Origin: a virus | Lineage: Duplodnaviria; Heunggongvirae; Uroviricota; Caudoviricetes | IMG/VR virus record: IMGVR_UViG_2713896908_000005 | DNA length: 37,921 nucleotides | Strand: one strand, 5' to 3' | Shown: piece by piece, positions 1 to 36,760 of the stretch | How the letters are laid out: each line of letters begins with the position of its first letter | Numbering within the stretch: position 1 is the stretch's first letter | Notes under the pieces: model-generated | Seen by the model: only the letters and a program-made list of their open reading frames with translations | What the model was told of the DNA's origin: nothing | Databases searched by the model: none | Translations under genes and position numbers: made by a program

Positions 1-125
1 TGCTGGGGCAGGCCTTTTTCCATGTCGTCTGCCAGTTCTGCCTCTTTCTCTTCACGGGCGATCTGCTGGTAGTGACGCGCCCAGCTCTGAGCCTCAAGAC
101 GATCCTGAATGTAATAAGCGTTCAT
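1..125 (-). CDS. hypothetical phage early protein, N-terminal part only (gene runs off the left edge)
   Basis: Minus-strand ATG at 125-123 with AGGAG-type SD about 7 nt upstream (rc of 133-137); frame open to position 1; begins [41 protein letters not shown]; no family recognised. Confidence 0.4.
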
Positions 126-200
126 GGCTGAACTCCTGAAAATGGCTGTGAAAATATCGCCCGCGAAATGCCAGGCTGATTAGGAAAACAGGAAAGGGGA

Positions 201-491
201 TTAGTGATTCAGGCCGTTACCGCGTCCGTCGAGAAAAACTTCCACGAGCAAATCACGGGTATAAGTGCGCTCGATGCCGCGATGCAGATAAAGCCGTCCG
301 CGTAAATTAGCTGATGCAGTCCAGGTACCATCTTTGTGTTTGACCAGCATTCCTGGCATGACCGCACCTCGATTAACGGTCTGCGTTCCATAATGTTGAT
401 GAACCATAAAAACTCCTGCCCGTAAGCTGGGCTGCTGAACATATAGAGACTTCTGCGCGTATTCAGGCGGTGGATGGCCGCCGGTTGTCAT
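201..491 (-). CDS. hypothetical protein (96 aa) in leftward early operon
   Basis: ORF from six-frame track; same orientation as repressor gene and downstream of the OL-like operator array; no recognisable motif (not N-like, no Arg-rich N-terminus). Confidence 0.35.
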
Positions 492-659
492 AACTAAGCC
501 GCCTCGTTGAAGCGACTAAGGTATGAAATGTTGAGTTAATTTCAGCTGGTCACACCGACGTTCACGCGTCCGTTTCACCCCTCGCACTCCCCGAAGCCTG
601 CTGAAATTCAAACTGCGGATCTAAGCGGTCATCGCAACGGTGAATCAGGTAGTTGCCGT

Positions 660-760
660 ATCGTTGTGTTGTTGCGATGAATTTATTTAAAACTATAGTT
701 GTTTTATCGTCAACAACAAAAGTTGTTTTATTGGTTGTTTTAGATATAACTGGTTGTATT
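660..760. promoter_or_regulatory. OL-like operator array: clustered GTTGTT / AACAAC half-sites
   Basis: Repeated motifs gttgtgttgttg (663-674), AGTTGTTTTA (698-707 and 721-730), caacaacaa (711-719), GGTTGTTTT (733-741), GGTTGTA (752-758); same half-site as the palindromic operator between the repressor and cro-like genes. Confidence 0.45.
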
Positions 761-854
761 TAGGATGGATTTATTTTGTGACTTGAATCGCATAGCGATA
801 ACTGAAGCGAGGTTATGGTGGTTTTTTTAACGGTGTGTGTGATGAGGGGAGGGC

Positions 855-881
855 AAAAGAAAACCCGGCACGGTGACCGGG
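855..881 (-). terminator. putative intrinsic terminator downstream of repressor gene (minus strand)
   Basis: CCCGG(864-868)/CCGGG(877-881) 5-bp stem with 8-nt loop; on the minus strand it is followed by UUUUCUUUU (rc of 855-863). Confidence 0.45.
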
Positions 882-1002
882 ATTCTTACGCCGTTAGGTA
901 AAGATATTATTGCGGTGGCTTAATATTACTACCTAGAGCAAAGATAGGAATTAGTTCTTTACTGAATGAGCACAATGCCCAGTTGATAATTTTTAATTGG
1001 TA

Positions 1003-33916: not shown

Positions 33917-34491
33917 GCAGCCCTCACAATGTAATTAAATGAAATATTACGTGGGCGTGTCTCTGCTGCACCGACAATACTGGTACTCAACCCCGTTGCC
34001 GTTCGTTTGTTATTTTTATTTCCTTCAATCAAACAGTTGTAATCATCATTACCAATTAACGAATTGGTGGCATCAATACTGTCCGGGGACAAGGCATTAG
34101 TTGTGGAACTTAAAGTCAGCATCTCGTCTGAACTTGGAAGATTTTTTAATGGTGTTTCATTGCGTGAAATACCCGCGTAAAAAAAGGACTCATGTCTGTG
34201 AGCTTCAAAAGAGTCATCCTGAAGACTTAGCAAGGCTCGCCCCGCATCCACTCCACGTCCATCATCCCAGCCACGAATAAATTCACCGCGTAAATCAGGC
34301 AATTTATTGGTCGGGTAAGCCTTTGCCAGTTCCGGGTATTCTTCAGCAGAAAAAGCCGCACCATTGCATTTCAGCCAGCCTGTTGGCGGAGTGGCTGAAG
34401 GCCACGGAACAGGCACCCCAACCGGTAATGCAGAGCCTTCTCCTAAACCAACGTTTATGAAAATGCAGAAATAACGAGCAAATGGCATCAT
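33913..34491 (-). CDS. alternative tail fibre C-terminal (variable) cassette, inverted orientation; lacks an independent start
   Basis: ORF runs through the hix-like crossover site (34438-34463) toward pin; Gly/Pro-rich fibre-tip-like sequence; would be fused to the constant fibre gene after inversion. Confidence 0.55.
   Translation of the reverse strand: MMPFARYFCIFINVGLGEGSALPVGVPVPWPSATPPTGWLKCNGAAFSAEEYPELAKAYPTNKLPDLRGEFIRGWDDGRGVDAGRALLSLQDDSFEAHRHESFFYAGISRNETPLKNLPSSDEMLTLSSTTNALSPDSIDATNSLIGNDDYNCLIEGNKNNKRTATGLSTSIVGAAETRPRNISFNYIVRAA
34438..34463. promoter_or_regulatory. hix/gix-like 26-bp recombination site for the Pin invertase
   Basis: TTCTCCTAAACC AA CGTTTATGAAAA: matches the Hin/Gin-family site pattern TTxTCxxAAACC-NN-GGTTTxxGAxAA at most positions; lies just upstream of the invertase gene inside the alternative fibre cassette. 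Confidence 0.6.
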
Positions 34492-34517
34492 TCCTGCTTT
34501 TGTCAGGGAGATCTACC

Positions 34518-35072
34518 ATGCTTATTGGTTATGTACGTGTGTCAACAAATGACCAGAACACAGATCTACAACGTAATGCGCTGAACTGTGCAGGATGCGA
34601 GCTGATTTTTGAAGACAAGATAAGCGGTACAAAGTCCGAAAGGCCGGGACTGAAAAAACTGCTCAGGACATTATCGGCAGGTGATACTCTGGTTGTCTGG
34701 AAGCTGGATCGGCTGGGGCGTAGTATGCGGCATCTGGTCATTCTGGTTGAGGAGTTGCGCGAACGTGGCGTTAATTTTCGCAGCCTGACGGATGCTATTG
34801 ATACCAGCACACCGATGGGGCGTTTTTTCTTTCATGTGATGGGTGCCCTGGCTGAAATGGAACGAGAACTGATTGTTGAACGAACAAAAGCTGGACTGGA
34901 AGCTGCTCGCGCACAGGGACGAATTGGTGGACGTCGCCCCAAACTTACACCAGAACAATGGGCGCAGGCCGGGCGATTAATTGCATCAGGCGTTCCTCGC
35001 CAGAAGGTGGCGATCATCTATGATGTTGGTATATCGACACTGTATAAGAAGTTTCCGGTCGGAGATAAATGA
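34518..35072 (+). CDS. pin: DNA invertase (Pin/Gin/Hin family serine recombinase)
   Basis: Start at ATG 34518 (GGGAG SD); MLIGYVRVSTNDQNTDLQRNAL... with catalytic Ser in VRVSTNDQ and C-terminal HTH; 184 aa. Confidence 0.9.
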   Translation: MLIGYVRVSTNDQNTDLQRNALNCAGCELIFEDKISGTKSERPGLKKLLRTLSAGDTLVVWKLDRLGRSMRHLVILVEELRERGVNFRSLTDAIDTSTPMGRFFFHVMGALAEMERELIVERTKAGLEAARAQGRIGGRRPKLTPEQWAQAGRLIASGVPRQKVAIIYDVGISTLYKKFPVGDK

Positions 35073-35425
35073 AACCGTAGCACGTCGTATGCAAGAACGT
35101 GCTGTGGCAGGTTGGTTAACTTCCGATAGTGCGAGTATTGAAAGGTCTCTTGCCGTTATCGATTTTACGTATTTATTGTATGAGAGGATTTTCACTACCT
35201 CCCACCGACCATCTATGACTGTGTGCTCCTATCTCTAGGGCTGCTATGTGCCAGATGCGGACATACTCAGCAATATAGTGAATAAATTAGTAGGGGCTAG
35301 GTTACAGTAATGAACACATTGAACATTAATACCATTAATTTTCTTCTCTGGTGAGTTTGTTCCACTGCGTCATTTAACCTAGTCCCCATTAATTATTTTT
35401 GGTATTGTCAACTGGAAAATTTGTT

Positions 35426-36214
35426 CTACTTTATTTTTCGCCACATCTTTTCTATTAAGTCAGGATGCAAATATGTCGTTTTATCTTTTGTGATCTTTAT
35501 TGACGTGTTGTTTCTTTTTAACAAAACTCCATGCAGATGATTTTTTCTTTTAAATTCATCCCAAAATTCTTTTTTCACTTTGGATGTAACTGGCCTCTTT
35601 GGAATTAACAAAAAAAACCAAAAGCTATTAAATGCAACCATCCTAACAATATAATTGTTAGGGTTGAGGTTTAAACCACCAATCGATGTGCTTCTTAATA
35701 GATATGGTTCTAAAGGCTCTTCATGTTTACCAGTTTCCAGATTAACCATATTTGCAGAAGTTACAATTAGAAGGGAAAGAATTATACTATCTACATTTTT
35801 GTTTTTATTGCCAGTGATTATGAATGGTATGTATTTTTCTAAAATGACTCTGGCATTATAACCACCATTTGATGCCCTCGCTGAATTATATGATATCTTT
35901 AGAAGTTCACGTAATAATAAATCATATTCATATTCAAATGTTATTTCATTTCCGGGTTTTAAAGGTGTTAGCATCTGATTTTTAAAACAAGTTACGAAAT
36001 CAGCATCTAGTTGCGACAGTATTCCATTATTACACTCAGCGCATACATCCCCAATAACTGGATCGCCTTTAAAATGGTAGTCACTCTTATCAGTCATCGA
36101 TAAAAGTTCAACATTAAAACTTTTAATTATTGCTGAAGGGAAAATATGTTCTTTAGTTAAGTTTGTTGTGCTTTTACAATAAACGCAACTTTTTTTGTTT
36201 TCCATGTTTACCAT
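35426..36214 (-). CDS. uncharacterised 262-aa protein with N-terminal HNH-like Cys/His motif; AT-rich cargo gene next to att site
   Basis: CVYC...KEHIFPS...CAECNN near the N-terminus (CxxC / EH / CxxCN spacing like an HNH nuclease core); C-terminal about 190 aa unassigned; AT-rich; start may be the second ATG (36205). Confidence 0.65.
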   Translation of the reverse strand: MVNMENKKSCVYCKSTTNLTKEHIFPSAIIKSFNVELLSMTDKSDYHFKGDPVIGDVCAECNNGILSQLDADFVTCFKNQMLTPLKPGNEITFEYEYDLLLRELLKISYNSARASNGGYNARVILEKYIPFIITGNKNKNVDSIILSLLIVTSANMVNLETGKHEEPLEPYLLRSTSIGGLNLNPNNYIVRMVAFNSFWFFLLIPKRPVTSKVKKEFWDEFKRKNHLHGVLLKRNNTSIKITKDKTTYLHPDLIEKMWRKIK

Positions 36215-36715
36215 CCAATTAAAATTTATTTAATCAATTTTCGAAGAGTAATCAAACTATTTAGCTTAGTCAATATCTATCTATTGGCCCTGAAGCCTTA
36301 GATGTTATTTGCTAGCGATAACAAACTGTTTGAAAAGGTACGCGCAGATGATAACTACGAGGTTAAGCCTCGACATCCACCTTGAGGTACACAATTGGCT
36401 CATCAAAAGTATGGGACATATTCCGGGCGATCTCAGTATGCTTTTTCCGCTCTTCGCCCATAACAGACATTCACTACAGTTATGGTAGAAGGTATGCATG
36501 CTGGGTGGGGAAAGTATAAAGGAAAAGAAGACCGCTGCGCCGTTTGTCGTCACGTTTATCTTCATTGGTTATGCAAGTCGTAATACAAGGTGGGACAAAA
36601 CTGAGACACATAAGGCCTCGCAATGGCTTGCAAGGCTTTACATGTTTTGATTTGGTGGGACGTGTGAGCGCAGCGTTGATGGGGTAATGCTTTGAATTAG
36701 AAGCGGATTCTTATA

Positions 36716-36760
36716 ATTCGTAATGCGAAGGTCGTAGGTTCGACTCCTATTATCGCACCA
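36716..36760 (+). other. 3-prime fragment of a tRNA gene (anticodon loop to CCA end; resembles tRNA-Thr) = probable prophage attR core
   Basis: ATTCGTAATGCGAAGGTCGTAGGTTCGACTCCTATTATCGCACCA: T-arm GGTTCGACTCC and terminal CCA present, but no complementary 5-prime acceptor/D-arm upstream, so it is a partial copy. Confidence 0.6.

Follow-up and report, generated by a model that had tools for sequence, protein, structure and literature searches.

Phage SfV, the genome of which was reportedly described by Allison et al. 2002, and its relatives SfI, SfII and SfIV combine an HK97-type head with a Mu-type contractile tail, share a thrW attachment (att) core and have a cargo slot beside attP/attR. 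Lambda-like phages with a DLP12-type nin region, among them PhiR34_1 and the K-12 cryptic prophage DLP12, are siphoviruses with a Nu1/A terminase and lambda-type tails, and they have slots after Q (holding a porin) and after Rz (holding bor). This work concerns a viral DNA stretch of 37,921 nucleotides (Caudoviricetes; IMG/VR record IMGVR_UViG_2713896908_000005), hereafter called the window, which resembles both groups. Positions 1-36760 very probably belong to an SfV-like temperate myovirus prophage at thrW, of which they cover the right-hand ~36.8 kb, and in which a recombinant lambda-type/SfV-type backbone is interspersed with five AT-rich cassettes (morons). The kind of object is already known: an ordinary SfV-type temperate phage, built of lambda-like, HK97-like and Mu-like parts.

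The prophage was delineated by open reading frame (ORF) listing, composition profiling and BLAST, and homology breakpoints were obtained by comparing the window with 10 relatives (Table 1). In the early half, cI/cro, O/P, the nin genes, Q and S-R-Rz stand in lambda order, and the cI-to-Q stretch, including emrE and ybcK, is 96-99% identical to PhiR34_1 (99.1% over 1-6870 and 96.4% over 8045-9763). From the HNH and terminase genes through the fibre N-terminus, the window is 98% identical to and collinear with SfV (NC_003444) and its relatives: window 15232-26832 matches SfV 1-11600 at 98.1% nucleotide identity and window 27498-32827 matches SfV 11646-16975 at 97.6%, the tail gene set being collinear with SfV orf11-orf21. 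No SfV match was found left of 11813, where SfV has its own early region (PerC, KilA-N, DUF968) instead of the lambda/DLP12-type region of the window; both the SfV-type early region and the gtr O-antigen modification locus are absent from the window. The lambda-type early and lysis genes, HK97-type head and Mu-type tail announced by the original prediction were all recovered, namely an S24/HTH repressor, Phage_rep_O, Phage_lambda_P, Ren, NinB-like, YbcO, RusA, Phage_antitermQ, a holin of the S family and Rz for the first; portal, S78 protease and Phage_capsid (Pfam) for the second; and sheath, tube, DNA_circ_N, GpP, Gp45, GP46, Baseplate_J and Gp48 (Pfam) for the third. The endolysin gave no Pfam match, and the 90%-identical stretch in Escherichia coli H9Ecoli is annotated GH24. 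In the proposed architecture, lambda/DLP12-type immunity, replication, nin and Q regions with a lambda-type S-R-Rz cassette would have been joined to an SfV-type HNH/terminase unit, HK97-type head and Mu-type contractile tail, followed by a fibre segment inverted by Pin.

The right end at 36760, also given by the original prediction, is exact, positions 36718-36760 being a copy of the 3' part of a tRNA-Thr. Such a partial copy is as expected of a phage integrating at thrW; ARAGORN found no full tRNA at attR. SfV attP-proximal DNA matches window 36591-36766 at 94.3%. Escherichia albertii, or a close relative of it, is the probable host: the DNA beyond attR has no match among 5,426 complete E. 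coli genomes, and an E. albertii contig matches the flank (36716-37919) at 94% identity. A minus-strand ORF beyond attR (37679-37903), which runs off the window, encodes proline-rich repeats of the EspF type (Pfam EspF, 1.7e-15), pointing to a type III effector gene adjoining thrW.

Table 1. Features of the prophage in the window (E-values follow the family names; GC, guanine-cytosine content; TMP, tape measure protein).
Feature	Position	Strand	Evidence or remark
kil-like cell-division inhibitor gene, left edge of early-left region	201-407	-	98.6% identity over 1-881 to H9Ecoli prophage, annotated 'phage encoded cell division inhibitor'
cI-type repressor	1003-1758	-	Pfam Peptidase_S24 1.5e-18, HTH_3 6.5e-13
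cro, YdaT/cII-position gene, replication O and P, ren	1797-4649	+	Pfam YdaT_toxin, Phage_rep_O, Phage_lambda_P; PHROG Ren-like exclusion protein 6e-42
Cargo island A (after ren)	4650-8046	+	emrE, ybcK, orf90, orf105; largest island
emrE-like SMR transporter	4714-5049	+	Pfam Multi_Drug_Res 2e-35
ybcK-like large serine recombinase	5305-6831	+	Pfam Resolvase, Recombinase, Zn_ribbon_recom
orf90	7353-7625	+	small ORF of island A
orf105	7719-8036	+	small ORF of island A
nin region (ybcN, ninE, ybcO, rusA, from 8227) and antiterminator Q (9702-10067)	8227-10067	+	Pfam NinB-like, YbcO, RusA; Phage_antitermQ 6e-44
Cargo island B (after Q)	10068-11590	orf427 on -	GC 0.40
orf427, uncharacterised family PHROG 5990	10274-11557	-	no match in Pfam, PADLOC, NCBIfam
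pR'-like promoter	11551-11580	+	consensus scan only
tR'-like terminator	11666-11687	+	consensus scan only
Lambda-type lysis cassette: holin, endolysin, Rz	11840-13091	+	Pfam Phage_holin_3_1 6e-25, Phage_lysis 1.5e-37
Cargo island C (after Rz)	13092-14821	+	three small ORFs; GC 0.33-0.41
Possible spanin-gene remnant	~13141-13408	+	PHROG 1026 Rz-like spanin 4.6e-10 for ORF 13248-13439
Promoter-like site, island C	13545-13573	+	10/12 consensus match
orf103	13701-14012	+	island C
orf134, membrane protein	13984-14388	+	island C
orf100	14434-14736	+	island C
Terminator-like site, island C	14761-14780	+	consensus match
HNH, small and large terminase, portal, S78 protease, HK97-type major capsid protein	14822-20732	+	Pfam HNH, Terminase_4, TerL_ATPase/nuclease, Phage_portal, Peptidase_S78, Phage_capsid; 98% identity to SfV
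Connector, head completion, tail terminator, sheath, tube, chaperone, TMP (25006-26838)	20812-26838	+	Pfam Phage_connect_1, Phage_HCP, Phage_tail_terminator, Phage_sheath_1, Tail_tube, Phage_TAC_7, PhageMin_Tail
Cargo island D (after TMP)	26833-27497	+	SfV homology ends 26832, resumes 27498
Promoter-like site, island D	26867-26894	+	extended -10 consensus match
orf176	26930-27460	+	N-terminal hydrophobic helix; GC 0.34
Terminator-like hairpin	27478-27503	+	10-bp stem; overlaps right edge of island D
Mu-type baseplate: DNA circulation protein, GpP, Gp45, GP46, Baseplate_J, Gp48, tail fibre (32523-33155)	27516-33155	+	Pfam DNA_circ_N, GpP domains, Phage_Mu_Gp45, GP46, Baseplate_J, Phage_Mu_Gp48
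Invertible fibre segment, ~1.65 kb	32807-34456		20-nt inverted repeats 32807-32826 / 34437-34456, 90% complementary; left repeat inside fibre gene
tfa'	33308-33916	-	Caudo_TAP, 202 aa
Alternative fibre C-terminus	33913-34440	-	Collar domain
Pin-type small serine invertase	34518-35072	+	Pfam Resolvase 9e-52, HTH_7 5e-13; 91-97% nucleotide identity to annotated pinE genes
Cargo island E (after pin)	35076-36717	orf262 on -	between pin and attR
orf262	35426-36214	-	GC 0.31; weak HNH_5-like, 4e-5, below Pfam cutoff
attR, partial copy of tRNA-Thr (thrW) 3' part	36718-36760	+	43 nt; matches tRNA-Thr but for one-base deletion

Five AT-rich islands (A-E) interrupt this backbone. The GC contents of the 10 cargo genes (0.31-0.44) and the 40 backbone genes (0.445-0.58) do not overlap (Mann-Whitney U=0, p=1.3e-6), although this test is not fully independent because the two classes were partly set by composition. 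The islands were also considered as mere AT-rich intergenic DNA, which was rejected as each has long ORFs with conserved homologues. The original prediction had placed cargo after Q, Rz, the TMP gene and pin; all four islands were found, and the largest, island A after ren, was missing from its list. The cargo genes are accessory, as had also been proposed: their presence varies, their flanking genes are directly adjacent in SfV and other relatives, and the same cassettes occur in other phage backbones and other genera. Conservation of the cargo as a core of this lineage, which would contradict that status, was searched for by junction queries in E. coli genomes and not found. The island D junction query hit 1,093 E. 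coli genomes, 172 of which carry orf176; the island C cassette recurs in 2 of 2,741 matching genomes, complete island A is present in six of 4,539, and the orf427 and orf262 cassettes (islands B and E) were each seen in one E. coli genome.

Other genes occupy the same slots in relatives: ybcL/ybcM, BstA-C or HEPN genes at the island A site; TIR, caspase+TIR, KAP NTPase, DUF6602, a methyltransferase or a porin between Q and S; iss, bor or Rha between Rz and HNH; and Avs2, restriction-modification with GIY-YIG, HNH+AAA+FRG, an autotransporter or gtr between pin and att. SfV itself has a methyltransferase at Q-S and gtrABV in the att-proximal slot occupied by orf262 in the window, and its Rz-HNH and TMP slots are empty; the DLP12-nin phages have ybcL/ybcM in place of orf90 and orf105, and the porin in place of orf427. 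Fixed variable slots in a conserved prophage backbone have been described as defence-gene hotspots in P2-like phages and P4-like satellites (Rousset et al. 2022, PMC9122126), and the TIR, Avs2, restriction-modification and KAP NTPase genes of the window's relatives fit that picture. The phage lineage and the slots are different ones, however, and the cargo of the window matches no catalogued system.

Breakpoints against the 10 relatives lie at cargo edges (8045, 11591-11813, 14802-14822, 26832-26837, 27498-27519, 35070-35076 and 36446-36591), in agreement with the proposal that cargo sits at module junctions. This proposal does not extend to the TMP slot, which is flanked on both sides by Mu-type tail genes collinear with SfV, and the broader rule that recombination seams are cargo hotspots fails, as seams without cargo occur at 17462 and 20811 (head alleles) and at 32826 (fibre). 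At the first two, the portal-protease-capsid block 17462-20811 is swapped for a divergent allele set (with ymfR) in B27, O17_K12a and VTB97420v, within flanks that are 93-97% identical, and neither joint has cargo. At the third, homology with relatives breaks exactly at the inversion site.

The coincidence of seams and cargo could also be a matter of survivorship: recombination and insertion would occur everywhere, and only joints at gene or operon boundaries would survive, making the junctions tolerated sites and not recombination hotspots. We consider this quite possible, without favouring it. Breakpoints do fall at gene boundaries with or without cargo, as the head genes and the inversion site illustrate, and islands B to D have no flanking repeat or recombinase site. 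Two observations pull the other way, each discriminating weakly: a possible spanin remnant after the intact Rz suggests that an imprecise joint has survived, and the conserved flanks (Q/holin, Rz/HNH, TMP/DNA-circulation, pin/att) are obvious substrates for homologous exchange. In the preferred reading of a mosaic backbone with interspersed cassettes, phages resident in or infecting the same cell would exchange the latter through homologous recombination in the conserved genes on either side. The cassettes lie where an added transcription unit leaves essential phage units whole: downstream of ren, between Q and the late promoter, in the gap from Rz to the packaging genes, in the gap separating the TMP and DNA-circulation genes, and between pin and attR.

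The cargo shares the anatomy of the morons of HK97 and HK022 in that it lies between genes that are adjacent in relatives, differs in base composition and, in islands C and D, is bracketed by promoter-like and terminator-like sites. The low-GC region from Q to the lysis genes of SfIV has previously been termed a moron (PMC3851460). The cassettes may be transcribed from their own promoters in the lysogen, and the cargo genes of the window may act in superinfection exclusion or anti-phage defence. Several results weigh against this. The promoters and terminators were called by consensus matching alone, and promoter-like sites are no more frequent than in shuffled sequences; the consensus promoter scan found no minus-strand promoter for orf427 or orf262. 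The cargo genes match no known defence family, PADLOC giving only a marginal 2TM_IV hit for orf134 (E=0.0027). Foldseek returned only chance-level kinesin matches for orf176 and, for the low-confidence orf427 model against PDB, nothing significant, the top matches being mostly proteasome beta subunits with E >=0.8. NCBIfam had no match for any cargo gene, Pfam at E up to 10 yielded nothing useful for orf427, orf176 and orf262, and the cargo genes except orf262 belong to PHROGs of unknown function. No paper turned up when the literature was searched with the RefSeq accessions of the three main cargo proteins.

Island D is a 665-bp insertion/deletion within a collinear, 97-98% identical Mu-type tail module: a cargo hotspot, and no module junction. 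SfV, H9Ecoli and CREC-591 have the TMP and DNA-circulation genes side by side, and the empty slot of SfV and H9Ecoli contains only a hairpin followed by a T run. In an evenly spaced sample of 33 matches spanning both flanks, the slot was empty in 20, held orf176 in seven and held other cassettes (PH-domain, OB-fold, other hypothetical) in six. A Leclercia prophage carries a 53%-identical orf176 homologue in the same slot, with a GC content of 0.35 against 0.51-0.60 for its neighbours; the proteins encoded on either side share 36-86% identity with their counterparts in the window. Since the AT-richness has been kept in the same slot at this divergence, low GC is no mark of recent arrival: on this comparison, the AT-richness of the cargo is a maintained property. 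In the Leclercia prophage (L011 8013-9808), the DNA-circulation and GpP baseplate genes are separated by a further two genes (503 aa and 94 aa, GC ~0.48), which mark another variable site within the Mu-type tail module.

A rival reading would make at least some AT-rich genes, orf176 above all, old lineage-associated tail-module genes that are often lost, their low GC being kept by function or regulation and not reflecting foreign origin. We hold this to be somewhat unlikely. The Leclercia homologue, with its retained slot and base composition next to diverged flanking proteins, speaks for it, as do the enterobacterial provenance of all 25 orf176 homologues found and the distinct TMP 3' end of orf176 carriers, whose flank identity is 97-99.9% versus ~93% at empty sites. 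On the other hand, SfV lacks orf176, ~60% of the sampled E. coli relatives have a slot that is empty but for the hairpin, ~18% carry unrelated cassettes there (opposite-strand OB-fold, PH-domain and others), and the orf176 cassette has its own promoter-like and terminator-like sites.

The gene for HK97 gp15, a small membrane protein with a single membrane pass, lies next to the tape measure gene; the study describing gp15 is reportedly that of Cumby et al. 2012. orf176, modelled poorly by AlphaFold2 with a predicted local distance difference test (pLDDT) score of 61, likewise encodes a small single-pass membrane protein beside the TMP gene, on its downstream side in this case, and the likeness is one of position and topology. 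PMC11364771 and PMC10884400 both list, among their references, the gp15 moron as a superinfection exclusion protein. orf176 may block DNA injection in the manner of gp15.

In island B, orf427 lies between Q and the stretch with the pR'-like promoter and tR'-like terminator. A match in E. coli strain H3 covers 9719-11688, with Q, orf427 and pR'/tR' as one block, and its homology stops exactly at 11688. Because orf427 has Q on one side and the putative pR'/qut target of Q on the other, it would be carried along with Q whenever the Q allele is exchanged. Its family is very large (>6,000 homologues); it occupies the same slot in H3 and in Klebsiella, where the homologue after Q is 63% identical, and a Vibrio homologue (48% identical) adjoins a type I restriction-modification system.

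Proteasome-beta/HslV-type Ntn hydrolases are marked by an N-terminal Thr nucleophile, Asp/Glu17- and Lys33-like residues and a C-terminal D-S-x-S/T-G-G block. In the orf427 family, the N-terminus (M-T-A-E-I-A) is invariant and an ETVGG-x-DVA block is conserved; M1-T2, D18, K30 and the E389-T-VGG-x-DVA block are invariant or almost so. When the helical inserts were removed from the orf427 profile, its best three PDB matches were archaeal proteasome beta subunits, with E only ~0.09, and the alignments cover the Thr1 segment and the DS-x-SGG segment. The full-length profile had no match among PDB sequences, hhalign against HslV was negative at 0.2% probability, and the AlphaFold2 model has a pLDDT of 71 that falls below 50 in the conserved termini. 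The proteasome-beta likeness is a lead, not a result. A more speculative proposal, which we consider unlikely, is that two of the cargo genes have uncharacterised anti-phage roles linked to their slots: orf427 would be a divergent proteasome-beta-like Ntn hydrolase with large helical inserts acting as a single-gene defence, and the TMP/DNA-circulation slot would be a dedicated place for genes co-evolving with the TMP, orf176 blocking DNA injection by related phages.

Island C fills the space between Rz and HNH, which are directly adjacent in SfV and Z0117EC0040. Immediately after the intact Rz, ~270 bp show 69-82% DNA similarity to spanin-gene 3' ends in phages LMessi, Fostie and mEp390. The ORF 13248-13439, which overlaps this stretch, resembles neither the Rz of the window itself nor the spanins of SfV-type relatives, and the evidence for a spanin remnant consists of its PHROG match and these distant DNA matches. 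The stretch may be a recombination scar.

The genes of island A have GC contents of 0.36-0.44, and breakpoints in and around it lie at 4384, 6870, 7162 and 8045. Its emrE-ybcK pair is common and is present in K-12 DLP12. Further to the left, the segment 581-1080 between the kil-like gene and cI is AT-rich and gene-poor, and H9Ecoli has a HipA-family kinase and a DUF3037 gene there; it looks like a sixth slot, empty in the window.

Small serine invertases of the Din family (Mu Gin with the G segment, P1 Cin, e14 Pin) lie beside a segment bounded by inverted repeats, with one repeat within the fibre gene and two opposed sets of fibre C-terminus and assembly gene. The window has the same arrangement, and the e14-type fibre inversion module inferred earlier was borne out by the 20-nt inverted repeats, a Resolvase+HTH_7 recombinase, and an alternative collar-domain fibre end with Caudo_TAP on the minus strand. 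SfV has neither the invertible segment nor pin. B27 and Z0117EC0040 carry the homologous segment in the reverse orientation, and H9Ecoli and CREC-591 carry it in that of the window; the evidence for inversion is comparative only. In contrast to the Din-family switches, the segment is asymmetric, the plus-strand set measuring 513 bp and the minus-strand set 1,129 bp. In the fibre-assembly position, the plus-strand ORF (33079-33339) is only 86 aa long, overlaps the fibre gene and has no Pfam match. Given the full 202-aa Caudo_TAP partner on the minus strand, one orientation of the switch may be crippled.

In E. coli strain 455, a different, Lom-bearing prophage remnant at the same locus has an att-proximal end that matches window 35076-36766, island E included, at 99.3% identity, which indicates that the att-proximal arm is common to unrelated phage backbones. 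In that strain (L009 4936-8691), an AAA ATPase and a small gene precede island E, behind a degraded lambda-type prophage.

The presence of island E behind such a remnant at the same chromosomal locus also fits another origin of the element, as a defective chimera built in the chromosome from successive thrW prophages and not a viable phage. The short plus-strand fibre-assembly ORF points the same way, and so does the int/xis end, which falls outside window 1-36760; the last two weigh against a viable temperate phage. Even so, this origin is very unlikely. All late genes equal their SfV counterparts in length and have no frameshift, the same hybrid layout of lambda-type early and SfV-type late genes is present in E. 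coli H9Ecoli and O17_K12a, and the isolated Escherichia phages vB_EcoM-689R6 and SKA5 match much of the late region at 96-98%. An SfV-like temperate prophage remains the preferred reading.

A mosaic layout and the concepts of morons and hotspots are textbook knowledge for SfV-like and lambdoid phages, and the finding itself adds little to them. One caution that it offers is that the low GC of a prophage gene does not date its arrival. Interest attaches to the clearly delimited hotspot within the tail module and to the cargo genes that await characterisation. As candidates of the latter kind, orf427, orf176, orf262 and the cassette of three genes behind Rz sit in slots where relatives keep proven defence systems, and the practical value lies in the map: five precisely bounded slots with conserved anchor genes, from which accessory genes can be mined in Enterobacterales prophages.

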